Source: a phage
Reading direction: 5' to 3' (one strand)
Length of the DNA: 64,000 bases
Assembly (NCBI GenBank): GCA_024673055.1
Contig: GCA_024673055.1_4537.1
Both the position numbers and the translations under genes were made by a program. This document shows positions 13,690 through 41,902 of the stretch, piece after piece (positions within the stretch are counted from its first letter, which is position 1; each line of letters opens with the position of its first letter). The notes beneath the pieces are model-generated. The model was not told the DNA's origin and did no database searches. It saw nothing but the letters and a program-made list of their open reading frames with translations.

Positions 13690-15933
13690 TTGATTCGTTT
13701 TGTAACTAAATCTAACGGTAAGACAGAGGAGTTTAATCCAGAAAAACTTCGCAAGTGGTCTGAATTTGCAGCAGGTAAACTAAACTGGTCTGAAATTGAA
13801 TTAGAAGCTGTGAAGCGGTGTTATGACGGTGTGTCTACACGTGATCTGCATAAAGCAATGATTGCAGCGTGTATTGACAAGAAAACACAAGCTTACAGTG
13901 ATATGGCAGGAAGACTTCTTCTGGGTATGATTTACAAACAGGCTCATGGGGGATACCACAGTATCCCTTCACTGAATACCTTTTATCATGATATGGTAGA
14001 ACGTGGACATTGGGCTAAAATGGATTATACTGATGAAGAGATCAAAGAAATCGGTAAGATTGTAAAGCATAATAAAAATCTAACTTATGGTTATTCTGTT
14101 TTACGTCAGATGGTAGATAAATATCTTATTCGAGATGCAGTAAACGATGTTGTGCATGAGTCCCCACAGTTTCTTTTCATTGGTATCGCAATGAAGGTTA
14201 TGGAGATCCAACCAAAAGAACGCCGTATAGAAGATATTAAAAAACTTTATACTTATGTTAGCGATCTTAAGATTAATCTGCCATCGCCGTATCTGACAAC
14301 TCTACGAACTCCAATCAAAGGAAGTGCGTCTTGTTGTTTATTCCGTGCAGACGATACGGCAGAGTCTTTAGCCATTGCTAACTACTTAGCTCATGAGTAT
14401 ACGTTGAATAACGCAGGTATTGGTGTTAATCTTCAAACTCGTGCCACAGGTCAAGGTGTTAAGAATAATCGTATTATTCATGGTGGTCTTCTTCCGTATC
14501 TGAAATGGATGGAAGATAGTGTTGGAGCTTCGAAGCAAGCAAGCCGTGGAGGTAGTGCTACAGTTACCTTTACCATACTTGAACCAGATTTCGACGATCT
14601 GATTCGACTGAAGAATCCAACAACACCTATAGATAAACGAGTAGACAAACTGGATTATTCTATTGTTGTTAACCGTTCATTCTTGCGTCGAGCAGCAAAA
14701 AACGAAGATTGGATGTTAGTTAGTTGTGATGATGCTCCTGAACTTTATGAAGCTTTGTATAAAAGTGAAGAAGAGTTTGATGCAGTTTATGGCAAAGTAA
14801 GCCGTCGTCGCATTAAGAAAAAATTTGTTAAGGCTCGTGATCTTCTGACAGAGATTATTGTTCAACGTGCAGAAACAGGACGTATTTACATGTTCTTTGC
14901 TGACAACGTTAACAACCATACACCTTTCCTGGATACGGTGTATCAATCAAACCTGTGTCAAGAGATTTTCTTACCGACTAAAGCTTTCCACAATATGCCG
15001 GATCTCTTTACTGGTGAGAATACTGAAGATCAAGAATTGGCTTTATGTTTCTTATCTTCTATTGTTGCTGGTCGTGTATTACCTGAAGAATATGAAGATG
15101 TTGCATACTACACTGTATTGACAATTGACAACGTTATTGAAACAATGGATTATCCATTTAAACATAACGAAATAACTGCTAAAGCACGTAGATCTATTGG
15201 TGTAGGCATTACAAACTTAGCGCATTACTTGGCAAGTAATTTTGTAAATTATTCAGATGCTTATGCTAAAAAATTAATGCATGAACTTGCAGAACGTCAT
15301 TACTTTTGGTTGGCAAAAGCCTCTCTGCGTCTGGCTAAGGAAAAAGGTAATGCGGAGTGGATCGATAAGACCAAATGGCCTCAAGGTTGGCTACCAATTG
15401 ACACTTATGCTAAAACAGTAGATAGTATCGGTAATTTTGATCTTAAAATGGACTGGGAAGGCTTACGTGCTGAAATCATTGAACAAGGTGGTATCCGTAA
15501 CAGTGTCTTGGCTGCTATTGCACCCAATGAGTCCAGCAGTTTGGTAAGCAATACTACTAACTCTCTGTATCCTGTTCGTGATACCATTATGTATAAACAA
15601 AGTCAGAAAGGCAGTGTATTATTTATTGTTCCAGACTATGAAAAACTGAAAATGTTCTACCAATCTGCCTGGGATACTCCGGCTAAAGATCTTGCAGAAA
15701 TGTATGGTATCTTTACCAAGTTTACGGACCAAGGAATTTCTTGTGATTCTTGGTTAGATTATTCTAAATTGGTAGGGGGACGTTTATCAGTTAAAGAAGA
15801 GATGAAATTTATTTTGAACTTTGCTAGACTGGGTGGTAAGTCATTGTATTACCTTAATAGTAGAACAAAATCAGCAGACTCTTTAGCACAAGAAGATTCT
15901 GAAGACGAAGGATGTAGTGCCTGTAAAATGTAG
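13690..15933 (+). CDS. nrdA: ribonucleoside-diphosphate reductase large subunit (class Ia)
   Basis: 747 aa; N-terminal ATP-cone-like region; C-terminal CSAC tail; TTG start after GGGAGGAG. Confidence 0.9.
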   Translation: MIRFVTKSNGKTEEFNPEKLRKWSEFAAGKLNWSEIELEAVKRCYDGVSTRDLHKAMIAACIDKKTQAYSDMAGRLLLGMIYKQAHGGYHSIPSLNTFYHDMVERGHWAKMDYTDEEIKEIGKIVKHNKNLTYGYSVLRQMVDKYLIRDAVNDVVHESPQFLFIGIAMKVMEIQPKERRIEDIKKLYTYVSDLKINLPSPYLTTLRTPIKGSASCCLFRADDTAESLAIANYLAHEYTLNNAGIGVNLQTRATGQGVKNNRIIHGGLLPYLKWMEDSVGASKQASRGGSATVTFTILEPDFDDLIRLKNPTTPIDKRVDKLDYSIVVNRSFLRRAAKNEDWMLVSCDDAPELYEALYKSEEEFDAVYGKVSRRRIKKKFVKARDLLTEIIVQRAETGRIYMFFADNVNNHTPFLDTVYQSNLCQEIFLPTKAFHNMPDLFTGENTEDQELALCFLSSIVAGRVLPEEYEDVAYYTVLTIDNVIETMDYPFKHNEITAKARRSIGVGITNLAHYLASNFVNYSDAYAKKLMHELAERHYFWLAKASLRLAKEKGNAEWIDKTKWPQGWLPIDTYAKTVDSIGNFDLKMDWEGLRAEIIEQGGIRNSVLAAIAPNESSSLVSNTTNSLYPVRDTIMYKQSQKGSVLFIVPDYEKLKMFYQSAWDTPAKDLAEMYGIFTKFTDQGISCDSWLDYSKLVGGRLSVKEEMKFILNFARLGGKSLYYLNSRTKSADSLAQEDSEDEGCSACKM

Positions 15934-15944
15934 TAGGAGAACAG

Positions 15945-16601
15945 ATGAAGAAGGGTAAACGTAAAGTTACCGTTCTCACAGAGAGGGGAGAAATCCCCTT
16001 GATTGTGGATGTTGAACGTAGATTGTGGGAAGGTGGTGTTATCAATGGGAAAAGGGTTAATACATTCATAGACCCTTCCTATGCAGCTTGGAAAGGCATG
16101 TTTAATCGTGCATATCGTATGGAAAACATTAGACCAGGTTATAAAGATGTTACTGTGTGTGATGCTTGGTTCACCTTTTCAAACTTTGATAACTGGTATC
16201 AAGAACACAATGTGGAAGGCTTTGTTTTAGATAAAGATCTTGTTCTTGAAGGAAATACTGTTTATTGTCCTGAATATTGTAGGTTTGTTCCTCCTTATAT
16301 AAATACACTCTTAAATTATGCTAAGAGGTATGAAAGAAAATACTTACTAGGAGCACATGTTAGGAAAGATGGTAAGATTTATGCCAAAGCTTCTGGGAGT
16401 AAAGGAAAGCATTTAGGCTACTTCGCTACAGAGGAAGAGGCACACTTCGCTTGGCTAAAAGATAAAGCTAAGTCAATCAGGGAAACAGCGGATCGTTACA
16501 AAGAGGAAGAACATTTTTATCCAGAGGTGTACAACACTCTTGTAAACAAGGCGGATTTCTATTGGCACCTGGCGGAAACAAAAACAGTATTTCGAGGCTA
16601 A
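15945..16601 (+). CDS. HNH/AP2-type homing endonuclease inserted between nrdA and nrdB
   Basis: Position identical to T4 mobE; AP2-like GYFATEEEAHFAW segment; LDKDL...GN...PEYCRFV HNH-like core. Confidence 0.5.
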   Translation: MKKGKRKVTVLTERGEIPLIVDVERRLWEGGVINGKRVNTFIDPSYAAWKGMFNRAYRMENIRPGYKDVTVCDAWFTFSNFDNWYQEHNVEGFVLDKDLVLEGNTVYCPEYCRFVPPYINTLLNYAKRYERKYLLGAHVRKDGKIYAKASGSKGKHLGYFATEEEAHFAWLKDKAKSIRETADRYKEEEHFYPEVYNTLVNKADFYWHLAETKTVFRG

Positions 16602-16605
16602 ATAT

Positions 16606-16629
16606 AAAGGGGCTTCGGCCCCCTTTTAT
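16606..16629 (+). terminator. intrinsic terminator (UUCG tetraloop)
   Basis: GGGGC-TTCG-GCCCC followed by TTTTATT. Confidence 0.65.
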
Positions 16630-16644
16630 TGAGGAGAATTTTAA

Positions 16645-17730
16645 ATGGCAGCAATTAATTTACACAATGAAGTTTACAAAACAGGAAAATATCCAGTATT
16701 TTTGGGGGAGCAATTAGGGATCTTTGATTCTGTTAACGTAACTTATCCAGAAATGCACAAACTCTACAAACTTCAAAAAGCACAAGATTGGGATGAAAAC
16801 GAAGTTAATCTGGATCAGACACGTAAAGATTTCGTAGCTTGTTCTAAAAACAACTATGATGTTATGATTAAAAACTTATCGTTCCAATGGGAAAATGATT
16901 CTCTTGCAAAATCAATCATCACTTTGTTCTCTCCATTCTTGAGTAACAATGAAGCCTGTGCTATGATGATGAAGCAGAGTGAAATGGAAGTTCTCCATGC
17001 GTTAACGTATTCTGAAATAATCCGTCAATGTACTCCAGATCCAATTGAAGTCATCAATCAGATTATGATTAATGATAAAATTTTCAATCGTATGGGTATC
17101 ATTGCTGATATCATGGGTCAGTTGGAAGAAGCTGGTCATAAGTATGCTCTAGGATTGATTGAAGCTAACGATGAACTTCGATTACTGATTCTTAAAGGGA
17201 TGGTAGCCCTGATTGGATTAGAAGGTATTCAGTTTATATCTTCCTTCTCTGCTACTTTTGCTATGGCAGAACAACAACTGTTTGTTGGGGCTTGTAAACT
17301 GATCCAGAAAATTATGCTAGATGAAATCTTGCATGTTAAGATGGATTATGCTGTAATTGATGCATTGATGCATGACCCAATTTGGCGTAAAATTTACGAA
17401 GATAATATTGAAGAGTTGACTTTGATCCTCGACACTGTTGTTGAACAAGAGGAACAGTGGTGTGACTACCTGTTTAGTGAAGGTCGTTTTATTGTAGGTC
17501 TTAACGCCGAATTGTCTAAACAGTGGGTTTATTTCAATGCTGCTCCTATTTATCGTCGATTGAAAATGAAAGCCAAGTTTAAAGCACCTAAACATAGTCC
17601 TTTAGCTTGGATGGAAAAATGGTTGAATCCTGATTTGATTCAGTCAGCAGCCCAAGAGATTCAGTTAACTAATTACAAATTGAATTCAGCTAACAAAGAT
17701 CTCTCTGATGATGAGGAGCTTGACTTCTAA
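16645..17730 (+). CDS. nrdB: ribonucleoside-diphosphate reductase small subunit
   Basis: 361 aa; acidic C-terminal tail (LSDDEELDF); immediately downstream of nrdA/homing endonuclease. Confidence 0.85.
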   Translation: MAAINLHNEVYKTGKYPVFLGEQLGIFDSVNVTYPEMHKLYKLQKAQDWDENEVNLDQTRKDFVACSKNNYDVMIKNLSFQWENDSLAKSIITLFSPFLSNNEACAMMMKQSEMEVLHALTYSEIIRQCTPDPIEVINQIMINDKIFNRMGIIADIMGQLEEAGHKYALGLIEANDELRLLILKGMVALIGLEGIQFISSFSATFAMAEQQLFVGACKLIQKIMLDEILHVKMDYAVIDALMHDPIWRKIYEDNIEELTLILDTVVEQEEQWCDYLFSEGRFIVGLNAELSKQWVYFNAAPIYRRLKMKAKFKAPKHSPLAWMEKWLNPDLIQSAAQEIQLTNYKLNSANKDLSDDEELDF

Positions 17731-17939
17731 TGATTTTGAGATGTGTTGGTATAATCGACACATTCAAAGACGTTTTTGACAAAGAGGCTTCTTATGAAGC
17801 CTCCGAAATGAAGAATGGTTTTTGTGATGTATTCGGTAAACGCCTGAAGAAAAACGGCGATCCTTGGCTAGGAGTTATGTCTTGTGGTCATATTATTGTA
17901 AATGGTGTTGCCAAGTTTGAAATAATTAAGGAGGAATAA
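17730..17939 (+). CDS. hypothetical protein
   Basis: 69-aa ORF coupled to nrdB stop. Confidence 0.4.
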   Translation: MILRCVGIIDTFKDVFDKEASYEASEMKNGFCDVFGKRLKKNGDPWLGVMSCGHIIVNGVAKFEIIKEE

Positions 17940-18091
17940 TGGCTGAAAAACTTATTTTTTGTCCTGTGTGTGGTGGGACTGGACAGATGGAAGTGGAAAT
18001 TATGGTAACATTTCCTTGCCTGAATTGTCATGGTGAAGGACGAGTAGTAGTCTTTGAAAAAGAAGGGTTGGAGGTAGAAGATGGAGAGTGA
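17939..18091 (+). CDS. small zinc-ribbon protein (50 aa)
   Basis: AAGGAGGA SD; CPVCGG...CLNCHG; below track cutoff. Confidence 0.35.
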   Translation: MAEKLIFCPVCGGTGQMEVEIMVTFPCLNCHGEGRVVVFEKEGLEVEDGE

Positions 18092-18245
18092 AAAAGAGTA
18101 TGTCCGAATTCCACGAGAATTAACAGATCACATTGCAGAAGCAATAGCTTTCGAAGCTAGATGTTGTGGAGGCATTGCTTACGATATTTATGAAGCAATT
18201 ATTAAAGCTGCTCAAGAAGAGGAGGAGATGAAAAATGGGTATTGA
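18081..18245 (+). CDS. small hypothetical protein (54 aa)
   Basis: GGAGG SD then ATG 18081; fills otherwise empty coding gap. Confidence 0.3.
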   Translation: MESEKEYVRIPRELTDHIAEAIAFEARCCGGIAYDIYEAIIKAAQEEEEMKNGY

Positions 18246-18561
18246 TATCGAATGGCGTATGTTACAGGGTGCACCTTTTAATAAGTGGGAAGAGGTTGTA
18301 GGAGAAGATCCTAGAATTGAAGAAGAATTTGATGGAGATTTTAACTGGTTCTTACAAGAAGGTCTTGACTTAAGTCGCATCTCTCCTTTCTACGATGCTG
18401 ATGAGTCTTATTGCATATATGGTATTTATTTAGAAGGCGGAGAAGGAAGCGTAGCTGTAGATCTTGAGCAAGTAAATGAGAATGCAAAAGAAGCCTATGC
18501 AGAGCTACTTGAAAAATATAACATTAAAACGGAAACTATTATTTCTCAACATGTCTGGTAA
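18235..18561 (+). CDS. hypothetical acidic protein
   Basis: 108-aa ORF, GAGGAGGAG SD. Confidence 0.5.
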   Translation: MGIDIEWRMLQGAPFNKWEEVVGEDPRIEEEFDGDFNWFLQEGLDLSRISPFYDADESYCIYGIYLEGGEGSVAVDLEQVNENAKEAYAELLEKYNIKTETIISQHVW

Positions 18562-18570
18562 GGAGAGAAA

Positions 18571-19137
18571 ATGAAAGTAGAAAAAACAAAAATTGAAGGT
18601 GCGGTAATTATCAAACCAGACGTTTATAAAGATGATCGTGGTTTCTTTTTAGAAACATACAATGAACAAAAATACGAAGATATCATTGGTAAACAAACTT
18701 TCGTTCAAGATAATATGTCTAAATCAAACTTCGGTGTTTTGCGAGGAATGCACTTTCAAACAAATAACCCGCAAGGTAAGCTTGTTCGTTGTGTAAGTGG
18801 AGAAGTATTGGATTTCGCTGTAGATTTACGTAAAGATAGTCCAACTTACGGTGCTTGGGACGGTGTTGTTCTTCGTGCACGACACCATACGCAGTTTTGG
18901 CTTCCCCCTGGTTTGGCACATGGTTTTATAGTTTTGAGTATGGACGCTATCTTTGAATACAAATGCACAACTCCATACGACCCTTCTAGCGAACAAAGTT
19001 TACGTTGGGATGATCCTGACATAGGGATCGATTGGGGCTTCGATATGATTTTTGACGAAGGTTTTAAACCTATCTTATCAACAAAAGATGCAATGGCTAA
19101 ATCTTTTCAACAGTTGCGTAGTGAGGGTGTATGCTAA
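18571..19137 (+). CDS. rmlC: dTDP-4-dehydrorhamnose 3,5-epimerase
   Basis: Cupin-fold RmlC signature DDRGFFLET and GMHFQ; 188 aa. Confidence 0.8.
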   Translation: MKVEKTKIEGAVIIKPDVYKDDRGFFLETYNEQKYEDIIGKQTFVQDNMSKSNFGVLRGMHFQTNNPQGKLVRCVSGEVLDFAVDLRKDSPTYGAWDGVVLRARHHTQFWLPPGLAHGFIVLSMDAIFEYKCTTPYDPSSEQSLRWDDPDIGIDWGFDMIFDEGFKPILSTKDAMAKSFQQLRSEGVC

Positions 19138-19973
19138 CATATCTGGTATTGGGTGGTAATGGACAACTGGGACAAGCTTTACGTAAAGTGGTTCCTTCTA
19201 ATGTATCTTTAATTTATCCTAAAGAACGTGTAGATATTACAAATTTTGAAGCTGTGCGAAACGCTATTGTTGAAGATTATGTAGACGGTGTTATTAACTG
19301 CGCTGCTTATACGGCTGTAGATAAAGCAGAACATGATTTTGCTACTGCTTTGGCTGTTAATGCGTATGGACCTGCAAATATTGCGGCAGTGTGCAGCAAA
19401 CTTAAAATTGATTTTGTGCATATTTCTACAGACTATATTTTTAATTACTCTCACCCTATTTTTGAAGATACTACACCTAACCCAATAAACAATTATGGGT
19501 ATACGAAAGAACTTGGTGAAAAAATGGTGCGAGGAGTTAACCCAAATGCATATATTATTCGAACAGCCTCGGTATATAGCGAATTTGGAAATAACTTTCT
19601 AAAAACGATGTTGTCTCGCTATAATGATGGACAACGTGATTTTATTATTGTTGCTGATCAGTTCTCTTGTCCAACATATGCTCCAGATTTAGCAGAAGCT
19701 ATTTTTGAAGTATTAAAGACAGGTTGGTCAAGGTCTGTTAAGACTTACCATTTTGCAGGAAGCCATTTTATTTCTTGGGCGGAGTTTGCGGAAAAGATCT
19801 TGACACAGATGCCAGAACCTGTTAAGATATCGGCGGTATCAGCTTCAACCTATAATGCTCCAGCAGCACGTCCGGTGAAGTCACAACTAGTAACCAGTCA
19901 CTACCTTACAAAATCAGATTTAAATAAAGGTATTGAACAGTCTTTAGCAGTATTACTTAATAAGGAGAGGTAA
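19131..19973 (+). CDS. rmlD: dTDP-4-dehydrorhamnose reductase
   Basis: N-terminal GGNGQLG Rossmann motif; YTAVDKAE and STDYIF motifs characteristic of RmlD. Confidence 0.75.
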   Translation: MLTYLVLGGNGQLGQALRKVVPSNVSLIYPKERVDITNFEAVRNAIVEDYVDGVINCAAYTAVDKAEHDFATALAVNAYGPANIAAVCSKLKIDFVHISTDYIFNYSHPIFEDTTPNPINNYGYTKELGEKMVRGVNPNAYIIRTASVYSEFGNNFLKTMLSRYNDGQRDFIIVADQFSCPTYAPDLAEAIFEVLKTGWSRSVKTYHFAGSHFISWAEFAEKILTQMPEPVKISAVSASTYNAPAARPVKSQLVTSHYLTKSDLNKGIEQSLAVLLNKER

Positions 19974-20233
19974 TGGAATTTGTAATTTTTGGTAAACCTA
20001 ACTGTCAATTTTGCGAAATGTCAAAACAACTATTAACCATGCGCAATAAACAGTTTGAATATTTAAGTCTTGATCAAGACTATGATTTAGAATCAATGAC
20101 TAAAACAGTTGTTGATCTTACCGGAGTTCCTCCACGCACATTTCCACAAATTCTATCTGAAGTGAACGGGGAGGTAACATACGTAGGCGGTTTTACCGAA
20201 CTGCGTGATCTCATGGCTCAAATTGCGGAGTAA
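19973..20233 (+). CDS. nrdC: glutaredoxin-like protein (T4 NrdC-type)
   Basis: 86 aa; CQFC redox motif near N-terminus; size and layout as T4 NrdC. Confidence 0.7.
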   Translation: MEFVIFGKPNCQFCEMSKQLLTMRNKQFEYLSLDQDYDLESMTKTVVDLTGVPPRTFPQILSEVNGEVTYVGGFTELRDLMAQIAE

Positions 20234-20238
20234 CAATT

Positions 20239-20388
20239 ATGAAAAGTAAACAGAAACGTAAGATCTTTTCTCGTGCTTTGGCAAATGAGCTGAAGTCCAA
20301 CATAAAGAAAACGAAACCAAAACGTGAGACTTCTCCAGAACATCTGTTGTTTAACGAGTTGGATCACGGAGTAGGAGACGATGAATAG
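20239..20388 (+). CDS. small basic hypothetical protein (49 aa)
   Basis: ATG 20239 after GGAG; fills gap before lysozyme. Confidence 0.3.
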   Translation: MKSKQKRKIFSRALANELKSNIKKTKPKRETSPEHLLFNELDHGVGDDE

Positions 20389-20395
20389 GAAGTAA

Positions 20396-20896
20396 ATGGC
20401 TAAAGTAGTAGATGAGTTTGATATGCTACGAGTCGATGAAGGACTGAAGCTTACTGTTTACCAAGATCATCTTGGTTATTGGACAGTTGGCATAGGACAC
20501 CTTCTGACTAAAATAAAAGATAAAGCAAAGGCTATTCAAATCTTAGATAATCTTCTTGGTCGTAAGACTAATGGAGTTATCACAGAAAAAGAAGCCCGTC
20601 AAATCTTTGCTGACGATGTTGCAAAAGTGAAGAGAGACATAAAAAACAGTACTATCTTATCACCAATCTATGATAAGGTTAGTGATACTCGTAAATTGGG
20701 AATAATCAACATGGTTTTCCAGTTGGGGTTAAAAGGTGCTGAAGGGTTTCAAAATAGCTTGACTTTAATCAGCAATGCATATTATACTCAAGCAGGTAAA
20801 AACATGCGTAAAAGCCGATGGTATAGCCAGACGCCAAACCGTGCTGAACGAGTAATTAAAGTTCTGACTTCTGGAACTTTAGATGCTTACAACTAA
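20396..20896 (+). CDS. e: T4-type lysozyme (endolysin)
   Basis: MLRVDEGLKLTVYQD...GYWTVGIGHLLTK...NMVFQLG...KSRWYSQTPNRAERVI closely parallels T4 lysozyme including the catalytic Glu/Asp/Thr region. Confidence 0.9.
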   Translation: MAKVVDEFDMLRVDEGLKLTVYQDHLGYWTVGIGHLLTKIKDKAKAIQILDNLLGRKTNGVITEKEARQIFADDVAKVKRDIKNSTILSPIYDKVSDTRKLGIINMVFQLGLKGAEGFQNSLTLISNAYYTQAGKNMRKSRWYSQTPNRAERVIKVLTSGTLDAYN

Positions 20897-20898
20897 TA

Positions 20899-20920
20899 AA
20901 GGGGCTTCGGCCCCTTCTAA
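20899..20920 (+). terminator. stem-loop (UUCG tetraloop), weak U-tract
   Basis: GGGGC-TTCG-GCCCC followed by TTCTAAAA. Confidence 0.45.
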
Positions 20921-20933
20921 AAGGAGTGCTACT

Positions 20934-21692
20934 ATGGGAAATAAAACCGCAGCTAAAACACAACGGCAGAAACTGGCTAATTCAGCAAAGATTGAAAGCC
21001 GTTATGCAGCAAAAGCGGTAGGTAATGACGATTACCGTTTAGATGAATTTATGCCTGAAGGGGACCAAAATAAGATTGTTCAAAGCATGATTTGGAATGA
21101 TCTGACTGTTGTAAATGCTCCGGCAGGGACTGGTAAAACCTCTGTTGCTTTATGGAAAGCTTTGCAGATGCTTCGTTCAGGAGACTTCCGTAAACTACTT
21201 TTTATCAAGAACCCTACTGAAGTCGGAGATGATCAGATTGGTTTCTTGTCGGGGGATAAAACAGATAAACTAGCAGCACACTATGAATCTACAAAACGTA
21301 TTTTCCAGCAATTCATGACAGCCAACAAATTGGAAAACGATATTGGATCAGGTAAGATCGAATTGAATATTCCTAACTATTTGTTAGGGGCTACCCTGGA
21401 TAATACAATCGTCATTATTGACGAAGCACAACTTATGTCAACAGAAACACTTAAACTTCTTATTGAACGTGCAGGTATTAATACGCATGTTATTGTATTA
21501 GGCGATGTTCGCCAGACATATGCAATTAAAAAACGTAGCAATGGTCTGCATCAAATTTTGGAACTTTTATATCCAGAAAATGAAGAAGGTGTTCGTGAGC
21601 CAATTGTAGATTTTATTGGATACGTTGAACTGACAACGGACGATAATAAACGTGGACGTTTGTCTAAACTGATTACTGAAGTGTTTATTTAA
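20934..21692 (+). CDS. phoH: PhoH-like ATPase
   Basis: Walker A APAGTGKTS, Walker B IIDEAQ; start ATG 20934 after AAGGAG (track start 20883 overlaps lysozyme and terminator). Confidence 0.75.
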   Translation: MGNKTAAKTQRQKLANSAKIESRYAAKAVGNDDYRLDEFMPEGDQNKIVQSMIWNDLTVVNAPAGTGKTSVALWKALQMLRSGDFRKLLFIKNPTEVGDDQIGFLSGDKTDKLAAHYESTKRIFQQFMTANKLENDIGSGKIELNIPNYLLGATLDNTIVIIDEAQLMSTETLKLLIERAGINTHVIVLGDVRQTYAIKKRSNGLHQILELLYPENEEGVREPIVDFIGYVELTTDDNKRGRLSKLITEVFI

Positions 21693-21727
21693 TAACATGG
21701 CAGGGAAGCCATTTATAAGGAGGATTG

Positions 21728-22228
21728 ATGGGTGTAGCAACAATAGCTATCGGAAGAAGCGGTATAGATGAGTGCTATCAAACGGGACTCGTAAAACCTA
21801 ACGAATTTCGTCAAATTTGTGTAAACCATATTGAAAAAGAGATTGCTCTTACTTTAGAGAATATGACCCTCCGAGATAAACTGGAAATGTTTAAATGTTG
21901 GTGTCTAGGAGAAGATTGGCTTTTAAACCATTTTCAAGAACTTTCTGATAGTAAAGAAAGCTTGTTTGATTGTATAATAGGAATAGCTGGCTCCGATCCT
22001 AGCCTTCTGCACATAACAGAAGAAGAGGCGAAGTTACTGTTCTTAAGTAATTTGTTTAATAAGAAAGCACTGCTTGTTCGTGATTGCAGTGATCTTCTTA
22101 ATAACCCGCTCGCAACGTCTGATCAAATTTTTGTTGACAAAGAGACACTACGTGCGATAGAATACATCTGCAAATATGTGAATGGCGGGAAAGCGGTTCT
22201 TAAAACATTAACAGAGGAGGAAGAATAG
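21728..22228 (+). CDS. hypothetical protein
   Basis: AAGGAGGA SD then ATG 21728. Confidence 0.5.
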   Translation: MGVATIAIGRSGIDECYQTGLVKPNEFRQICVNHIEKEIALTLENMTLRDKLEMFKCWCLGEDWLLNHFQELSDSKESLFDCIIGIAGSDPSLLHITEEEAKLLFLSNLFNKKALLVRDCSDLLNNPLATSDQIFVDKETLRAIEYICKYVNGGKAVLKTLTEEEE

Positions 22229-22920
22229 TGACGACAATTATTGCAACCAAAAATAAGATTTTGAGTGACGGTAAGGTAACTTTTGGTGGACGTGTAGATT
22301 CTATTAATTTCAAAAAGGTCCGAAAAATTGGAGATTACCTTGTAGGTGGTGCTGGTCGTCTGACCTCCGTGCTTTCTTTCTTTCAATGGTTTGAACAAAA
22401 TCTACAGTGCGAAGCAGCACGTGATGCTGTCCCTGGTTTGATGATTCACTCTGATCCAGATAAAGAAGATGAAGAGTTTATTGCACTTGTTGTTCATCCA
22501 GACGGACGTATTTTCCTGCACGAAGGTAACAACCCAACACGTGCATATCCGATTGATGAAGAATATTATGCAGTAGGGAGTGGGTCAGATTTTGCTTTAG
22601 CTGCTCTTGATGCAGGGGCAACACCAGAACAGGCTATGGAAGTAGCTAAAAAGCGAGATGCTTTTTCTGGTGGTGAAACATTTATTGAAGAACAAGACGA
22701 GATTATTGAATTAACAGATGATGATTTAGAAAACTTCTCCAAAGAAGAATTGATCAATCTTTTGAAATTCGGTAATCCCTACGGTGAAGAAGAACCTCGT
22801 AACGTGGCAGGTAACGAGGCGGATACTGAAGAAAAATCTGTTGCAGAAAACAACTTGACTTCTAAATCTGAAAATATTAATCTCGTAAATGTGGCGGATT
22901 TCGAAGGAACCGCTATTTAA
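22228..22920 (+). CDS. HslV/proteasome-beta-like Ntn peptidase with acidic C-terminal extension
   Basis: N-terminal M-TTIIATK (Thr1 nucleophile after Met removal), GGAGRL, YYAVGSGSDFALAALDAG matches HslV GSGG/active-site region. Confidence 0.55.
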   Translation: MTTIIATKNKILSDGKVTFGGRVDSINFKKVRKIGDYLVGGAGRLTSVLSFFQWFEQNLQCEAARDAVPGLMIHSDPDKEDEEFIALVVHPDGRIFLHEGNNPTRAYPIDEEYYAVGSGSDFALAALDAGATPEQAMEVAKKRDAFSGGETFIEEQDEIIELTDDDLENFSKEELINLLKFGNPYGEEEPRNVAGNEADTEEKSVAENNLTSKSENINLVNVADFEGTAI

Positions 22921-22925
22921 CAAAC

Positions 22926-22945
22926 TGCCCCTTCGGGGGCATTTC
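22926..22945 (+). terminator. intrinsic terminator
   Basis: GCCCC-TTCG-GGGGC followed by ATTTCTT. Confidence 0.5.
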
Positions 22946-22965
22946 TTAAACATAGGAGATTAATA

Positions 22966-23400
22966 ATGTTACAAGTTCCTGCTAAGTTTGTTGAAGGCGC
23001 TATCCACTCTTACCGTCAAACATGTAAGAGGGCAAGAAACTGTTTAGATGGTCTGGTGGCAAAAACCTATACTGTTGAAAAGAAGAAACGTTGGTTTGGC
23101 AAAGATGTTTATGAAGTTAATATTTTTGGTGAACATAAACTAAACCATGACACTCCTGAAAACATGTTAGAAATATTTCTAAGAGATGACAAAATATCTC
23201 CTATGGATTACCAACTTTTAAAATTTTATGATTCTTCTTTGGCTATTGATAAGTTTGTTGAAGATATTCTGTCTAGAAAAACAGATAAAAACACTTATCC
23301 TCTAGAAGCTGATCAAATAGGATTATTAAACGAGATTTCATCCTTTAAAGAGTTGGATAATATTACAAAAGAGGAGATTTTAGATGGCATTAGATTATGA
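22966..23400 (+). CDS. hypothetical protein
   Basis: 144-aa ORF, AGGAGA SD. Confidence 0.5.
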   Translation: MLQVPAKFVEGAIHSYRQTCKRARNCLDGLVAKTYTVEKKKRWFGKDVYEVNIFGEHKLNHDTPENMLEIFLRDDKISPMDYQLLKFYDSSLAIDKFVEDILSRKTDKNTYPLEADQIGLLNEISSFKELDNITKEEILDGIRL

Positions 23401-23893
23401 TCGCCCAACGAGCGATTATTATCCGACACCGCAAAAAGCAATCAATAGTTTGTTTAGTGTTATAGATTTCAAAAATCTAAAGGAAGAAGGTTGGGTTTTT
23501 GCAGAACCTTGCAGAGGTGAAGCTGAAGCGATTTATCGCCATTTTCCTGAAGGTTCAGAATATTGCGAACTTGAAGAAGGTAAAGATTATTTTAGTCATG
23601 AATGGGAAAATCGTCCCGACATTATAATCACAAATCCTCCATTTAAGTTAGCAATGGAGTTCTTGGAAAAGAGCTTAAAAGAGGCGGATGTTTGTATTTA
23701 TCTTCTTCGGTTGGGTTTCTTGGAGTCAAAGAAACGACGAGAGTTCCATCAAAAGAATCCACCAACAAACCTTATAGTCCTTTCAGAACGGCCTTCGTTT
23801 GTTGCAGGTGGAACAGATAAGACAGCATACGCTTGGTATGTATACGACCCAAAGAATCGTTTGGGCCTCTCTCAACCATTTTATTTTGTTTAA
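23384..23893 (+). CDS. small amino-methyltransferase-like protein (phage Dam-like, NPPF motif)
   Basis: IIITNPPF (motif IV of N6A/N4C MTases) and FAEPCRGEAEA (SAM-binding-like); 169 aa. Confidence 0.5.
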   Translation: MALDYDRPTSDYYPTPQKAINSLFSVIDFKNLKEEGWVFAEPCRGEAEAIYRHFPEGSEYCELEEGKDYFSHEWENRPDIIITNPPFKLAMEFLEKSLKEADVCIYLLRLGFLESKKRREFHQKNPPTNLIVLSERPSFVAGGTDKTAYAWYVYDPKNRLGLSQPFYFV

Positions 23894-23905
23894 GGAGTGT
23901 GAACT

Positions 23906-24142
23906 ATGGGTAAACTAATTATGACAGTGGCTATTGATTTTGATGAAGTAGATGAAAGCCTCAACCTTTCACTTTCTACTGACGTAGATGGCGAAATGGA
24001 TAATATTGAAGCAGCTACTGCTCTTTTCTTCAAAAAAGCCATTGAAGTTTATGCCGAACATGCTGCAAATCAGGCAGTAGATTACGGTGGTATCGTGCGA
24101 GCTTTAGTTCACTCTACCGAGGGCAATGACTGGGAAGATTAA
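23906..24142 (+). CDS. hypothetical protein
   Basis: 78-aa ORF. Confidence 0.4.
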   Translation: MGKLIMTVAIDFDEVDESLNLSLSTDVDGEMDNIEAATALFFKKAIEVYAEHAANQAVDYGGIVRALVHSTEGNDWED

Positions 24143-24345
24143 TGGCTTACAATTATTACTGCATTTATGCACATGAAAAGAAAAAAGGTGACACTGGGAC
24201 TAACGTTTATGCAGAGTCCGAATCTCATGCAAAAGAGATTGGTGCTATCCTTTTATCACGCTGGACTGGAAATAATTACAGTGCAGAAGATATGTTTGCA
24301 GAAGTGGATTCTAGTATCCAAGAAGACAACATAACAACTACGTGA
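24142..24345 (+). CDS. hypothetical protein
   Basis: 67-aa ORF coupled to upstream stop. Confidence 0.4.
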   Translation: MAYNYYCIYAHEKKKGDTGTNVYAESESHAKEIGAILLSRWTGNNYSAEDMFAEVDSSIQEDNITTT

Positions 24346-24390
24346 TATACTTATACTCCCTTTTCGGAGGGAGTATTTTAAGGAGGGATT

Positions 24391-24585
24391 ATGCAGAGCG
24401 GAGAAGAACTTTTAGAGAAACAATTCTCAACGCGTCAACAAGCTTTAAGTTATATGGTTTTTCTAAGCAATCTTGATGTGAATGAGATACTTTTACGGCG
24501 CGAAGGTAATTTCTGGAGCGTTAAATATCATGCAACAAGGTCTGTAATCTACCTGGAAGAGGCGGAATTCTCTTTGGTAGAATGA
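24391..24585 (+). CDS. hypothetical protein
   Basis: AAGGAGGGA SD; preceded by stem-loop CTCCC-TTTTCG-GAGGGAG. Confidence 0.4.
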   Translation: MQSGEELLEKQFSTRQQALSYMVFLSNLDVNEILLRREGNFWSVKYHATRSVIYLEEAEFSLVE

Positions 24586-24599
24586 TCCGAGGAGTAGTT

Positions 24600-25172
24600 A
24601 TGCGTTCAACTTTCACTGGCAAAATAAATGCTGGTTTGATTTTTACAGCAGTAAGCATTCTTAGCAAAAAGTTTAAAGTTGTTAACTTACCTGTGTGTGT
24701 CGATTTCGATCATGTTTTTGATCCTTCGAACCCCACTCGTTGCATAGTAAGGAGCAATGTTGAAAACCCAACAGAAAATCTTTTTTATGTAACAAAACCA
24801 TCTCAAAGCATACTTAACCAGGTTGAGGCGAAATTGATACCTAACGGTAAATATTACTCCTTTTTACCTTGTAAGTCGGTTGAAGTAGAGAATAGCAGTA
24901 CTTTCGCTAACAACTTGTCTGTATTCGTTTTCTTTGTTTCACAGGAAGACGAAACAGATGAAATGGTAGCAACAGTGAGATCACTTTATGACTCTTTAGG
25001 GGTTGTTTATAGTCAACAAGTGTGCGAAAATAATAAAGCCTGTGTAGATTTCATTATCAACGGTATTTGTGTTTGTAGAGTAGAATCTTTTTGGCTGCAC
25101 GATACATATGTGACTGTAGCAGAGGTTATATCTGAACCAAGATTTAGTCATGCGGTTTCGTTAATAATTTGA
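24600..25172 (+). CDS. hypothetical protein
   Basis: GAGGAG SD then ATG 24600 (track start 24582 lacks SD). Confidence 0.5.
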   Translation: MRSTFTGKINAGLIFTAVSILSKKFKVVNLPVCVDFDHVFDPSNPTRCIVRSNVENPTENLFYVTKPSQSILNQVEAKLIPNGKYYSFLPCKSVEVENSSTFANNLSVFVFFVSQEDETDEMVATVRSLYDSLGVVYSQQVCENNKACVDFIINGICVCRVESFWLHDTYVTVAEVISEPRFSHAVSLII

Positions 25173-25182
25173 GGAGGAAGGA

Positions 25183-25512
25183 ATGGAAATTACTACAGAA
25201 CAAGCCCTTATCGACGAGGGTCGTAAAATCTTAGAAAAGTATTTAGGGGAGATTCATAAAACCCCTGGCTATTTGGGTTGGAGAATTGTTGAAGCTGTAG
25301 ATTTCCTTCCTCGTAACAGTAAAAACGTCGAAATGCGATCTCTTTTCTTATTAGTAAAGGTGGATGGGGATACACCTTTTAAAGATGCCGCAGAACATAT
25401 TGAAAAAGTTGAAGAGAAAGCTTATGCAGAATTTGCCGATCTTGTTTTAGAACAAGAGATTGAAGGAAAGGTGAATATTTTTATTTTCTTAGATTTTGAG
25501 GAGGATAAGTGA
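25183..25512 (+). CDS. hypothetical protein
   Basis: 109-aa ORF, GAGGAGGAAGG SD. Confidence 0.5.
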   Translation: MEITTEQALIDEGRKILEKYLGEIHKTPGYLGWRIVEAVDFLPRNSKNVEMRSLFLLVKVDGDTPFKDAAEHIEKVEEKAYAEFADLVLEQEIEGKVNIFIFLDFEEDK

Positions 25513-28978: not shown

Positions 28979-29920
28979 ATGGTGTTAATTGGTAGCCGTG
29001 CATTGCAAATTCATGCTATGGACATGGGAAAAGACTTGTATCGCCCTTGTGTAGATTTAGATTACCTGTGTACAGAACAAGAGTGGGAAGAATTATTAAA
29101 AATGTTCTCTCAAGAGGAGTTTGTTGAACTTGTAGAACGTAAAGGAAACAAAGGCCATGTCAAAATGATAGCTGGTGCACATTTGGAATACGATATTGCT
29201 TCTCAAGGAGATAGCACAGAAGCTTTGATTAGTTATTGTGAAGATTCTGATGATGTTCGTCGAACTTACGCTGGACATGTTGTTGCTCCTTTAGATGTGC
29301 TCTACCTTCTTAAAATGAGTCATCGTTTTAAAAAGGATAGTCCTCACTTCTTTAAAACTATGAAAGATATTCATTTCATGCGGTCACTGGGCGCAAAGAT
29401 CCCAGAAAATCTTAAGAGTATTTATGAGTTGCGTGAGAAAGAAACATACACTTACTCTCATCCGAACTTAAACGTAAAAAGTAAAGACTTCTTTAAAGGT
29501 GATGAGGTTCCGTATGTTTATGATCATGATTCTATCCATGAAGCAATCTCGGTAATGGATGCTCCAGCATATAAATCTTATATGAAAGATGGAAGTGAAG
29601 TTATGACCAGCAAAGAAAAGTTTTTTGCTCAACCAAAACATGTGCGCCTGTTAGGTGTTTATGAAGAAGCGTGTGTTTTGGCTTTGGAACGTTCACAAAT
29701 CCCTTTCGGTGAAGAGATCGGAGGTCCAACCCCTAAGCAAAGTTTTATAATGGCTTTATCTAAAGTCTGCACATCCATCACTAGTGGTTGGTTTAGGGAA
29801 TATGCTTGGGAAAACTTTTATGTTGTTACTAAGCTATATGAAAACATGGGCGAAAACGATTATGTTGAACGTTTTAAAGCTAATCAACATGTAGTTAAGC
29901 CTTTTGAAGGAGGTTATTAA
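28979..29920 (+). CDS. hypothetical protein (possible minimal nucleotidyltransferase fold)
   Basis: 313-aa ORF; N-terminal LIGSRAL...DLD loosely resembles pol-beta-type NTase GS...DxD; weak. Confidence 0.45.
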   Translation: MVLIGSRALQIHAMDMGKDLYRPCVDLDYLCTEQEWEELLKMFSQEEFVELVERKGNKGHVKMIAGAHLEYDIASQGDSTEALISYCEDSDDVRRTYAGHVVAPLDVLYLLKMSHRFKKDSPHFFKTMKDIHFMRSLGAKIPENLKSIYELREKETYTYSHPNLNVKSKDFFKGDEVPYVYDHDSIHEAISVMDAPAYKSYMKDGSEVMTSKEKFFAQPKHVRLLGVYEEACVLALERSQIPFGEEIGGPTPKQSFIMALSKVCTSITSGWFREYAWENFYVVTKLYENMGENDYVERFKANQHVVKPFEGGY

Positions 29921-31704: not shown

Positions 31705-32190
31705 ATGTTTCAAGTAAATGTCAATGTGCATAATAGTTACTCTGATTGTGAAACGTGTGGCTATAATTCATCTAATGTTATTCGTATTAGTGGCGATTTA
31801 GGAGAAGCTTCTTTTGGAGAAGAAGCAAGTTGCTTTAGTGGTATGGATGCAGAATGGAATGATATTGCACATTGGTTAGTGAGCAAACTAAAAGAAAAAG
31901 AGAAACCATTTCCTACTCTGCTTGATCGTTCTCTTGTGGAAGATGCAGGTAAAGCATATGCAGACTATGCGTATGCAGACGGGAAATATTTGGAAGATGA
32001 TAAGGCTAACCATTTGCTTTATGTTTACTATGAAGCTGAATCTGCCTACGATAATTATTACAGCATGTCTAACATCCTACGTCTGTTTGCAGAGTTTGAT
32101 ATTTATTTCGAAGTAGAATTTTCAGAAGATGATACTTACGAGTACAATTCTTATGATCCATTTGAGGAGGAAGAATGCCAAGACGAGTGA
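31705..32190 (+). CDS. hypothetical acidic protein
   Basis: 161-aa ORF, AGGAGGGAATATG. Confidence 0.5.
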   Translation: MFQVNVNVHNSYSDCETCGYNSSNVIRISGDLGEASFGEEASCFSGMDAEWNDIAHWLVSKLKEKEKPFPTLLDRSLVEDAGKAYADYAYADGKYLEDDKANHLLYVYYEAESAYDNYYSMSNILRLFAEFDIYFEVEFSEDDTYEYNSYDPFEEEECQDE

Positions 32191-32990
32191 TTTTTGTAAG
32201 TGGTGCAGGTTTAAGTGCAGACAGTGGGATTCGAACATTTAGAACAGACACAGATAGTGGTCGTGCTTTATGGGAAGAATATGATTTAGAAGAGGTCTGC
32301 GATATTGGAGCTTTCCAAGCAGGTTATCGTGTTAGAACATCTCCAGATCTTCCAGTGGTCGGTGGTGTAGACGAGAACGGTATGGATTTGTATGCCAAAA
32401 CACACGAATTTTATAACAAAAGACGTGTTGAGCTTAAAGATGTACAACCTAATGCTGCACATATTCAAATAGCAAAGTGGTTTAAGGAATATCCTAACCA
32501 AATAGTAAACTTGACAACAAACGTTGATGATCTACTAGAGCGAGCAGGTGTAGACAGAGATTCTGTTATTCACGTACACGGATATCTTCCTGAAGTAGTT
32601 TACCGTATGCATCCTGGAGATTACAAAACACTGGTAGATATTGGTTACAATAGTATAAACATAGATGATTATAACTGGGTGAAGCCTAATGTTGTATTTT
32701 TTGGTGAGGCTGCACCTTTGTATGCAGATATGGCTCACTTGTTCGATACTTTGACCATGCAAGATTTGGTTGTAGTAGTAGGATGTTCAAACCAAGTTAT
32801 CAATTTTAATTGGGAATTATTTCCTGCACTTAGTATGGGTACAAAAATGGTTGTAGTTAACCCTGGAGTTAATTACGAAGAAACACTTCTCTATGAAGAT
32901 CGTGGAGTTTTTGTTTACCGAGAAAAAGCTGCAACAGCCTTCAGCAATGAAGGTTTCATTAAAATGGTCGAAGACCACTTAAACAAATAA
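32175..32990 (+). CDS. SIR2-family (sirtuin-like) NAD-binding protein lacking zinc module
   Basis: FVSGAGLSADSGIRTFR matches sirtuin GAGxSxxSGIPxFR; NVDDLLERAG and HVHG motifs present; no CxxC zinc ribbon. Confidence 0.65.
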   Translation: MPRRVIFVSGAGLSADSGIRTFRTDTDSGRALWEEYDLEEVCDIGAFQAGYRVRTSPDLPVVGGVDENGMDLYAKTHEFYNKRRVELKDVQPNAAHIQIAKWFKEYPNQIVNLTTNVDDLLERAGVDRDSVIHVHGYLPEVVYRMHPGDYKTLVDIGYNSINIDDYNWVKPNVVFFGEAAPLYADMAHLFDTLTMQDLVVVVGCSNQVINFNWELFPALSMGTKMVVVNPGVNYEETLLYEDRGVFVYREKAATAFSNEGFIKMVEDHLNK

Positions 32991-32998: not shown

Positions 32999-33024
32999 AG
33001 GGGGCTTCGGCCCCTTTCTTATTA
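32999..33024 (+). terminator. intrinsic terminator (UUCG tetraloop)
   Basis: GGGGC-TTCG-GCCCC followed by TTTCTTATT. Confidence 0.6.
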
Positions 33025-33034
33025 GGAGAATAAA

Positions 33035-33307
33035 ATGACTGAAGAAATCCGTGATTACTACCTTGCACATTACGTTTACTACTTTGCCAATGCTACACAA
33101 AAAGGGGAAGGTAATCTTTACTTGGCAACAGGACATGGAACAGGCGTTAGGAAATCAAATATTGATAATGCCTTGGCTCAAGTGGCTGCGGGGCTAGAAG
33201 ATAAACTTCAAACACCTGTAGTTGTAGTGATGCAAAATATAAGTTACCTAGCAAGTTGTACTGAAACCGAATTTAACGCGTCTGAGACGCAATCTAACGA
33301 AGAATAA
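33035..33307 (+). CDS. hypothetical protein
   Basis: 90-aa ORF, AGGAGAATAAA SD; last + strand gene before strand switch. Confidence 0.45.
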   Translation: MTEEIRDYYLAHYVYYFANATQKGEGNLYLATGHGTGVRKSNIDNALAQVAAGLEDKLQTPVVVVMQNISYLASCTETEFNASETQSNEE

Positions 33308-33310
33308 AAC

Positions 33311-33337
33311 AAAGGCACCCAAGTGGGTGCCTTTTCT
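33311..33337. terminator. bidirectional terminator at convergence point
   Basis: GGCACCC-AAGT-GGGTGCC hairpin flanked by T-tracts on both strands between converging gene blocks. Confidence 0.6.
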
Positions 33338-33376
33338 ATTTTAGAGCGTCTCTGTTCGATTTAGGTGGGTTCTAGC

Positions 33377-33607
33377 TTACTTGTGTAGTGCTCTCTCGTA
33401 TAACTCAATGATCAATTCATCCTCTACTGTAATACGCGCCATTTGATCCGTCTTAAGTATTGTTGGTTGGTAGTGGTGCATTTCACTATTGATACTACAA
33501 TCCCATTCGTCATAACCTAAATACTCTCCTACATGGACCTTAACCATAAAGGGAAACGGGTTATCTACCAAAAATGCCATACAACCTTCTTCGATTTTAT
33601 TTAACAC
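33377..33607 (-). CDS. hypothetical protein
   Basis: Track ORF; start ambiguous. Confidence 0.35.
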   Translation of the reverse strand: MLNKIEEGCMAFLVDNPFPFMVKVHVGEYLGYDEWDCSINSEMHHYQPTILKTDQMARITVEDELIIELYERALHK

Positions 33608-33698
33608 ACGACCTCCTATTGCTACAGATATGAAAAAACCCGCCGAAGCGGGTTCTATTGCTACGATAGGATCACTATCCTATAGTATTGTTTCTGTG

Positions 33699-33980
33699 TC
33701 AAGCCTTAGCGTAGAAAAACTTCTCATATTCAGATTTTGTTACGATTGTGGGGCAATCTTTTGTTCCATCCTCGATAACAGGGGCTTCTACCATTCTGGT
33801 GTTGAATAAGCAATAAGTTCCACGCATGTAAATACCCAGTTTTGTTTCTACGATGTGCTCTTTACTTACACTTGAAAACTTAATCTCACCATCGGAGTCT
33901 CTTATAGCAATAAGCGCATGTTCAGGCCAATCTTTTCCTTTTGCTCCTAAAGCATTATACAATTCTTGAACGAGTTCCAT
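33699..33980 (-). CDS. hypothetical protein
   Basis: 93-aa track ORF in same-strand array. Confidence 0.45.
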   Translation of the reverse strand: MELVQELYNALGAKGKDWPEHALIAIRDSDGEIKFSSVSKEHIVETKLGIYMRGTYCLFNTRMVEAPVIEDGTKDCPTIVTKSEYEKFFYAKA

Positions 33981-33992
33981 ATGACCTCCTTA

Positions 33993-34166
33993 TTAAATAA
34001 CAAATTTTTCTTCTTCTGGCTTATCGTAATCTGGAGAATAAACATGTGCGGGATTAAAACCTTTAAAATTTCCGCGACCTTTACGTGGACAGTTGAATGT
34101 GCGAGCTTGATGATCCCCAAAAGATTTCCCACAATGCATACATTTAAAATCAGTGCGTTTAGTCAT
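33993..34166 (-). CDS. small zinc-ribbon protein
   Basis: AAGGAGA SD then ATG 34166; CMHCG...CPRKG Cys pairs. Confidence 0.4.
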   Translation of the reverse strand: MTKRTDFKCMHCGKSFGDHQARTFNCPRKGRGNFKGFNPAHVYSPDYDKPEEEKFVI

Positions 34167-41891: not shown

Positions 41892-41902
41892 AAATCCTCC
41901 AG

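Follow-up and report, generated by a model that had tools for sequence, protein, structure and literature searches.

Deletion of rmlBA and retention of rmlCD in the ribonucleotide reductase operon of a Phapecoctavirus

Why would a phage carry, among its ribonucleotide reductase genes, the genes for the last two steps of deoxythymidine diphosphate (dTDP)-L-rhamnose synthesis, rmlC and rmlD, without those for the first two, and for what would it use the sugar? The question is raised by a 64,000-nucleotide stretch of phage DNA (here the window; GenBank assembly GCA_024673055.1, contig GCA_024673055.1_4537.1), which is 99.6% identical to Escherichia phages ECO340P1/P2 and 98-99% identical to about 20 further members of Phapecoctavirus, the genus of phAPEC8-like myoviruses of about 150 kb in the subfamily Stephanstirmvirinae. 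It corresponds, in opposite orientation, to 43.3-105.8 kb of phage anhysbys, which of the annotated full genomes with this layout is the closest. Taken together, we consider it probable that rmlCD is the remnant of an rmlBACD operon left by deletion, that the host would supply the precursor, and that phage glycosyltransferases would use the resulting dTDP-rhamnose. The gene pair itself is already known: both genes are annotated as dTDP-4-dehydrorhamnose 3,5-epimerase and reductase in the GenBank records of ECO340P1-like relatives, the rmlCD-only layout has been deposited for about 20 phages, ESCO37 has been noted in print as lacking rmlA and rmlB (PMC10269720), and the rml operon of Stephanstirmvirinae is annotated in GenBank and discussed in the literature (PMC7552041, PMC8594841, PMC10269720). 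New here are the mechanism of the deletion, evidence that rmlBA was lost more than once while rmlCD was selectively kept, a quantitative argument for host complementation, and the observation that temperate enterobacterial phages have the glycosyltransferase cassette among their late genes; the loss mechanism, its recurrence and the complementation rationale were not found in the published papers searched.

The two genes and the junction that precedes them are as follows.

18562..18570, plus strand: deletion scar and Shine-Dalgarno sequence (GGAGAGAAA), from the stop of a 108-residue open reading frame (ORF) to the start of rmlC, defined by junction alignment
18571..19137, plus strand: rmlC, dTDP-4-dehydrorhamnose 3,5-epimerase, 188 aa (PF00908, E 7.8e-67; TIGR01221)
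19131..19973, plus strand: rmlD, dTDP-4-dehydrorhamnose reductase, 280 aa (PF04321, E 2.8e-73; TIGR01214)

RmlC scores 225.3 bits against the NCBIfam equivalog TIGR01221 (cut-off, 155.75; profile positions 1-174 of 176), and RmlD scores 239.1 bits against TIGR01214, a narrow margin over the cut-off of 224.05. Aligned to solved RmlC structures and to RfbC of Escherichia coli K-12, RmlC has the catalytic residues His61, Lys70, Tyr130 and Asp173 in the motifs RGMH61FQ, QGK70LVR, EY130KC and STKD173; their counterparts in Salmonella RmlC are His63, Lys73, Tyr133 and Asp170 (a His/Asp dyad, a Tyr acid and a Lys). The short-chain dehydrogenase motifs of RmlD are intact (nucleotide-binding G8GNG11QLG14, ST100DY and Y122GYTK126). 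Identity to the K-12 enzymes is 50% for RmlC (RfbC) and 31% for RmlD (RfbD). The PDB matches of RmlC include the cupins 4hmz and 2c0z, and related cupins carry out mono-epimerisations. These profile and motif matches show RmlC and RmlD, as predicted proteins, to be the intact last two enzymes of dTDP-L-rhamnose synthesis. They belong to the same enzyme families as those of the bacterial pathway (E. coli rfbBDAC and the rffG/rffH paralogues), with catalytic residues conserved, but the phage genes stand in an nrd operon with no linked O-antigen flippase or polymerase. An earlier note, made from the sequence alone, had recognised RmlC and RmlD at 18571-19973, both coupled to nrdC in a nucleotide-metabolism operon, with neither rmlA nor rmlB in the window. 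All of this holds: the two ORFs lie exactly at those coordinates, both exceed their equivalog cut-offs with matches far beyond chance, nrdA and nrdB lie upstream, and the gene downstream encodes a glutaredoxin-family protein for which "nrdC-like" is a fair label. The overlaps are 7 nt between rmlC and rmlD (ATGCTAA) and 1 nt between rmlD and the glutaredoxin gene (TAATG).

A tblastn search of the 64 kb with phage RmlA/RmlB and E. coli RffH/RffG found no RmlA or RmlB homologue, the sole weak match being the Rossmann end of RmlB against rmlD itself; the complete four-enzyme pathway is not encoded within the window. The search for rmlA and rmlB beyond the window, suggested in the earlier note, had a divided outcome: neither is annotated in anhysbys, and 48 related phage records (ESCO25, the type phage phAPEC8 and 46 others) carry both. 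In these, rmlBA sits between the 108-residue ORF and rmlC, with rmlB directly 3' of the ORF. The rmlBACD operon of phAPEC8, phi92 and other Stephanstirmvirinae occupies the same locus with the same flanks as in the window, and its RmlC protein is 98-100% identical, but the window has the last two genes only.

Compared with the full-pathway relatives, the scar at 18562-18570 is a fusion of two spacers: its first part is the 5' portion of the one before rmlB, its last part the 3' portion of the one between rmlA and rmlC. The pre-rmlB spacer of ESCO25 reads TAAGGAGA followed by ACTGATG, and the rmlA/rmlC spacer reads GCGGAGA followed by GAAAATG in DIJ07P2 and GCGGAGG followed by GAAAATG in ESCO25. 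The window and anhysbys share an identical junction, TAAGGAGA followed by GAAAATG; in the window it parses as TAA-GGAGA-GAAA-ATG, the crossover falling within the Shine-Dalgarno microhomology GGAGA. Comparison of these junctions shows that a deletion of about 1.88 kb between the Shine-Dalgarno sequences of rmlB and rmlC took out rmlB and rmlA, and that rmlC is still properly spaced from a predicted ribosome-binding site. Because the flanks of the window are 96-98% identical to those of four-gene phages, its two-gene state is, on this alignment, clearly derived and not a designed partial pathway. The partial deoxysugar pathway of the earlier note thus stands as a description, only rmlCD being present here, but its origin is a secondary deletion from a four-gene phage operon, which the sister genus and the majority of close relatives have kept.

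The distribution of the layouts was drawn from the GenBank phage collection, since the IMG/VR viral contigs yielded two loci with RmlC relatives, too few for the purpose. The layout of the window was seen in 21 records plus WPEC1/4/6, and rmlCD-only records make up about 23 of the 65 that have an RmlC at least 95% identical. In phi92, of the sister genus Justusliebigvirus, the order is nrdA-HNH-nrdB-small ORFs-rmlB-rmlA-rmlC-rmlD-glutaredoxin-lysozyme-phoH. In the more distant PVP-SE1 the annotation notes give gp139 and gp141 as homologues of nrdB and the glutaredoxin gene, and RmlC had no match in rV5-like phages; from this spacing and this absence, the rml genes are an insertion specific to Stephanstirmvirinae.

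Other losses can be told apart from that of the window. DIJ07P2 (2372-3440 of its locus) has a separate 802-bp internal deletion across rmlB-rmlA, which cuts RmlB at residue 305 of 330 (a 306-aa ORF) and reduces RmlA to its last 53 residues, with rmlC and rmlD intact; this loss of rmlA is independent of the window deletion. MirsaeidiM_Esher1 is rmlCD-only with a junction sequence that differs from that of the window, and the distant Klebsiella phage KP2025 (RmlC 61.5% identical) has nrdB, two small ORFs, rmlC, rmlD and the glutaredoxin gene and no rmlBA; both layouts may represent further losses of rmlBA.

What would make the first two genes dispensable is suggested by the metabolism of the host. 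RmlC acts on dTDP-4-keto-6-deoxy-D-glucose, which RffH and RffG also produce on the way to the Fuc4NAc of enterobacterial common antigen. In K-12, rffG, rffH and wecE lie within one locus, and blastn found rffG-rffH in 5,309 of 5,426 complete E. coli genomes (97.8%). In the same genomes host rmlC was found in 2,348 (43%) and host rmlD in 2,386 (44%), figures that are lower bounds, as blastn can miss very divergent alleles. The phi92-like phages need wecB, that is, enterobacterial common antigen, as primary receptor (PMC8594841), so a susceptible host is expected to have the RffH/RffG pathway. The phage would take dTDP-4-keto-6-deoxy-D-glucose made by host RffH/RffG or RmlA/RmlB, and its own RmlC and RmlD would turn it into dTDP-L-rhamnose. 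We regard it as very likely, from these gene counts, that the host supplies the missing RmlA/RmlB steps. The repeated loss of rmlBA with retention of rmlCD would then follow from the fact that adsorbable hosts supply steps one and two and under half of them the last two; rmlCD would be kept because only about 44% of E. coli genomes own rmlC and rmlD.

Retention is also seen in the genes themselves. Both are full length with catalytic motifs intact in 8 of 8 genomes compared. The ratio of nonsynonymous to synonymous substitution rates (dN/dS; Nei-Gojobori, six close genomes, rmlCD-only pairs included) is 0.02-0.06 for rmlC and 0.03-0.17 for rmlD; the window and anhysbys differ by 14 synonymous and 2 nonsynonymous changes in rmlC and by 10 and 1 in rmlD. 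By this measure rmlCD is under strong purifying selection and is retained wherever rmlBA was lost. RmlD belongs to a phage clade, on contigs of about 150 kb, at 51-99% identity, and its closest cellular sequences reach at most 44%. Because RmlD is 31% identical to K-12 RfbD, with cellular relatives at no more than 44% and the phage clade at no less than 51%, rmlCD is, as far as identity can tell, not a recent capture from a host.

Separately, dS is much higher in rmlC (0.12-0.44) than in rmlD and the glutaredoxin gene (0.00-0.13) when the window (18571-20233) is compared with phiWec186 and ESCO25, and phiWec186 rmlBA has 89% DNA identity to that of ESCO25, yet its RmlC and RmlD have only 65% protein identity to those of the window. 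This pattern points to recombination breakpoints within the rml operon.

For what, then, would dTDP-L-rhamnose be used? No gene for an enzyme using a nucleotide sugar was found in the 64 kb of the window. The search for glycosyltransferases beyond it, which the earlier note had advised, was productive: anhysbys, itself rmlCD-only, has four consecutive glycosyltransferase genes (GT1 to GT4) about 30 kb past the right end of the window, adjoining primase/helicase and DNA polymerase, and homologues occur in 135-137 phage records, essentially the RmlC-bearing set. GT1 and GT2 are paralogues (41% identical), and all four proteins (4/4) lack membrane segments, as expected of soluble enzymes. The model of GT1 (predicted local distance difference test score [pLDDT], 93) has a GT-B fold like that of the GT4-family enzymes GlgM, PglA, MshA, BshA, GtfC and SdgB. 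GT3, modelled at pLDDT 89, is a small enzyme of the GT-A type in which a DDD motif is invariant, and in the PDB it is best matched by A197, a glycosyltransferase of the virus STIV. By sequence, GT1, GT3 and GT4 had no meaningful match in the PDB, and fold searches of the GT3 and GT1 models returned only generic GT-A and GT4-type GT-B matches at template modelling (TM) scores of 0.4-0.6. GT3 has sub-threshold profile matches to PF20691, the TET-associated DNA glycosyltransferase (E 1e-3; 19.3 bits against a cut-off of 27.5), and to phrog_842, the T-even DNA glucosyltransferase (E 5.8e-6), over about 40 residues each. In the fold search with GT3 a generic viral GT-A ranked first and the TET-associated glycosyltransferase 42nd (TM 0.50).

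The same enzymes recur outside the subfamily. In a Serratia prophage a colinear GT4-GT3-GT2-like cassette separates the lysis genes from terminase. Two-gene versions, GT3-like plus GT2-like, were seen in a P22/Sf6-like contig, with terminase on one side and portal on the other, and in lambdoid contigs, where the Q antiterminator and the lysis genes flank them.

L017 5589-7670; L018 10001-12019; L019 9394-10969: GT3-like (GT-A) plus GT2-like (GT-B) cassette loci in temperate enterobacterial phages

In temperate enterobacterial phages the two genes thus form a mobile cassette, and its positions, where late lytic transcription is expected, fit the making of virions, or a treatment of DNA before packaging, better than they fit lysogenic conversion.

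As an observation apart, and outside the window, a tellurite-resistance-type gene set adjoins the glycosyltransferase cluster in the relatives (anhysbys 14761-25445, KP2025 and the metagenomic loci L021/L022). By Pfam it comprises TerD, a vWA-TerF-like protein, a ComF-like phosphoribosyltransferase and a weak HAD-hydrolase match; TelA and TerC are annotated in anhysbys, and the metagenomic relatives gave matches to both. The combination TerD/vWA-TerF/ComF/HAD has been proposed to make a nucleoside-like metabolite.

Our first-ranked reading, held with low confidence, is glycosylation of a phage protein. The soluble phage glycosyltransferases would use dTDP-rhamnose to build a rhamnose-containing glycan on an intracellular acceptor during lytic growth, and the acceptor would most likely be a virion protein and not DNA or the host envelope. 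This is preferred because a viral sugar-nucleotide pathway together with soluble glycosyltransferases is best known from capsid glycosylation in chloroviruses, and the virions of mycobacteriophages are glycosylated by enzymes that these phages encode. Chloroviruses and giant viruses likewise have genes both for making a deoxyhexose nucleotide sugar and for several soluble glycosyltransferases, and do not depend on the glycosylation machinery of the host; in PBCV-1, with GMD/GMER and the rhamnosyltransferase A064R, glycosyltransferases of the virus glycosylate the capsid (PMC7019647). However, the sugars there are carried by guanosine or uridine diphosphate and here by dTDP, the hosts belong to another domain, the sequences are unrelated, and glycosylated virion proteins are proven in chloroviruses, whereas for the phages they are a prediction. 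Mycobacteriophages, like the relatives of the window, group two to four glycosyltransferase genes away from the structural module, but they use host sugar nucleotides and have no rml genes; virion glycosylation is attributed to Che8 gp108-110 by Freeman et al. 2023, as cited in PMC12363180 and PMC11256854. The only tblastn matches of GT3 in the phage collection outside its own relatives are 256 mycobacteriophage glycosyltransferases. Orthology of GT3 to the Che8 virion enzymes was considered and rejected, since its similarity to gp108, in the GT-A domain, is weak and generic (23% over 147 aa) and none was found to gp110. A paper on JEP7 reports virions that did not stain for glycoprotein; it gives no taxonomy that would tie JEP7 to Stephanstirmvirinae and was not counted as evidence.

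Several points count against this account as a whole. RmlD exceeds its equivalog cut-off by only 15 bits, and its sequence fits 6-deoxy-L-talose as well as L-rhamnose as the product. With KP2025-like phages as outgroup, the deepest ancestral state, of two genes or four, is ambiguous. The synonymous changes among rmlCD-only genomes may be older than the deletion or stem from recombination. The co-occurrence of rmlCD with the glycosyltransferases is confined to one subfamily, where common descent confounds it, and the two gene sets are not adjacent. The generic folds of the modelled enzymes would give no donor or acceptor specificity, and no rml genes are in view beside the temperate-phage cassettes. 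That Stephanstirmvirinae make their own dTDP-L-rhamnose and that their soluble glycosyltransferases decorate the virion proteins of the phages themselves with a glycan containing rhamnose is accordingly put forward tentatively, as a possibility that has somewhat more in its favour than the others.

The earlier note had offered two uses, a sugar-based hypermodification of DNA and a remodelling of the host surface, and the evidence bears on both. Were the glycosyltransferases to move rhamnose onto a modified base, as T-even phages do with glucose on hydroxymethylcytosine, the DNA would be shielded from nucleases, an idea proposed in PMC7552041 and repeated in PMC10844046. The rml genes within a nucleotide-metabolism operon and the glycosyltransferases beside primase/helicase and DNA polymerase would suit it, as T-even and TET-associated systems likewise have glycosyltransferases near replication and nucleotide-metabolism genes, and so would the two sub-threshold profile matches of GT3. 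However, phi92-like relatives carry the same genes and have been described as "exceptionally susceptible" to restriction-modification systems (PMC8594841; see also PMC10844046), and no dCMP/dUMP hydroxymethylase or TET/JBP enzyme is annotated in anhysbys or was found in 37 Pfam-scanned proteins (many small ORFs falling outside that scan); nor was a TET/JBP enzyme or hydroxymethylase found among the window ORFs elsewhere called "Dcm" or "DNA methyltransferase" or among the large hypothetical proteins of anhysbys. Thymidylate is made by an ordinary ThyX, the structure of GT3 is no closer to the TET-associated glycosyltransferase than to any other GT-A enzyme, and the cassette also occurs in small temperate phages with no base-modifying gene in flanks of 9-21 kb. 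DNA as the acceptor is hence disfavoured and in our view improbable, and a variant in which rhamnosyl modification is sparse, motif-limited and not protective against the restriction systems tried so far is a less likely form of our proposal. Manipulation of the host envelope, which we think unlikely although less so than modification of DNA, could take two forms: dTDP-4-keto-6-deoxy-glucose would be drained from enterobacterial common antigen, or rhamnose would be put on lipid-linked host glycans, and infected cells and debris would stop binding phage (superinfection exclusion or receptor masking). Enterobacterial common antigen is indeed the primary receptor of phi92-like relatives, the Fuc4NAc precursor branches exactly at the substrate of RmlC, and GT4-type GT-B enzymes often work on lipid-linked sugars. 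The common four-gene form, with RmlA and RmlB, would however increase the shared intermediate and not decrease it. Anhysbys has no annotated flippase, membrane glycosyltransferase, polymerase or ligase, and the glycosyltransferases lack membrane segments, so positive support for surface remodelling is wanting; the phage also appears virulent, with no integrase or repressor annotated there. Gtr-type seroconversion modules differ in the same respects, no membrane flippase and no bactoprenol or serotype-specific membrane glycosyltransferase being annotated in anhysbys. Existing surface antigen would not be expected to turn over in one lytic cycle, and the temperate-phage cassette lies in late-gene regions and not in the usual positions of lysogenic conversion.

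Two further readings place the purpose of rmlCD elsewhere or deny one. As dTDP-L-rhamnose is a feedback inhibitor of glucose-1-phosphate thymidylyltransferase (bacterial RmlA), it might shut down dTDP-sugar synthesis in the host and save deoxythymidine triphosphate (dTTP) for phage replication. The company of rmlCD (thyX, a 5'-deoxynucleotidase-like gene, nrdAB and the glutaredoxin gene) accords with this, and the two-gene form would be enough to make the inhibitor out of a host intermediate, but the common form of the operon has its own RmlA, a consumer of dTTP, and the conserved multi-gene glycosyltransferase cluster would be left unexplained; we think such metabolic control very improbable. 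Least credible of all is that rmlCD became functionless with the loss of rmlBA and is on its way out. Half of the pathway is indeed gone, and rmlBA has been lost repeatedly in the genus, but the rmlCD ORFs are full length with intact motifs in all genomes examined and a distant Klebsiella phage lineage (KP2025) keeps exactly rmlCD; decay was rejected on the dN/dS results, which span 0.02-0.17 with rmlCD-only pairs included. Glycosylation of a phage protein thus stays ahead in our ranking, followed at increasing distance by host-envelope glycans, DNA and metabolic control.

The use of the sugar matters because Phapecoctaviruses and phi92-like phages have a broad host range on E. coli and are often suggested for therapy and biocontrol; about 130 deposited records of the group have the dTDP-rhamnose module and the glycosyltransferase cluster. 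A glycan on virions could affect antibody recognition, stability or adsorption, and one on DNA would be a new kind of modification. Glycosylation of virion proteins, if true, would be the first among phages of Gram-negative bacteria, as far as the literature search showed, and a phage counterpart to capsid glycosylation in chloroviruses and mimiviruses that could bear on the immune recognition of therapeutic phages. That rmlBA was lost repeatedly and rmlCD strictly kept would in any case illustrate cleanly, from nature, how a phage sheds steps already performed by every susceptible host.

The genes around rmlCD in the window are listed below.

13690..15933, plus strand: nrdA, large subunit of class Ia ribonucleotide reductase, first gene of the nucleotide-metabolism block (PF02867, E 5.8e-97, plus PF00317 and ATP-cone)
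15945..16601, plus strand: variable 218-aa ORF between nrdA and nrdB, with no Pfam match
16609-16622: GC-rich terminator-like hairpin 3' of the 218-aa ORF
16645..17730, plus strand: nrdB, small subunit of ribonucleotide reductase (PF00268, E 6.3e-33)
17730..18561, plus strand: four small overlapping ORFs (69, 50, 54 and 108 aa), kept in relatives
19973-20233, plus strand: glutaredoxin-family (NrdC-like) redoxin, 86 aa (PF00462, E 1.8e-09, 38 bits; phrog_22; CQFC motif)

From nrdB (16645) to the glutaredoxin gene all neighbours abut or overlap with no plus-strand terminator-like site in between, and it is for this reason a reasonable inference that rmlCD is co-transcribed with nrdB; a promoter scan gave 31 candidates against 29 expected in shuffled sequence, no better than chance. 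Among the four small ORFs only the 50-aa one has a match, a weak one to a DnaJ-type zinc finger. The 218-aa ORF is missing in anhysbys and ESCO25, where 15903-16607 of the window is unaligned, and phi92 has an equal-sized gene between nrdA and nrdB annotated as an HNH endonuclease; the ORF looks like a mobile homing-type insertion.

Elsewhere in the window, 2.3 kb (40562-42834) is missing in anhysbys, and the region at about 49000-57300 is a variable block of small minus-strand genes with patchy 93-98% identity to anhysbys in many short alignments. On the plus strand, 28979-29920 encodes a DUF7277+DUF7275 protein (E 4e-75) and 32175-32990 one of the Sir2 family (E 2e-22); both are close to the ORFs called "Dcm" or "DNA methyltransferase" in other records and here without Pfam support. 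At about 33000-34000 both the GC skew and the coding strand switch sign, the genes before this point being on the plus strand and those after it on the minus strand, which marks a point of divergence or convergence of transcription units.

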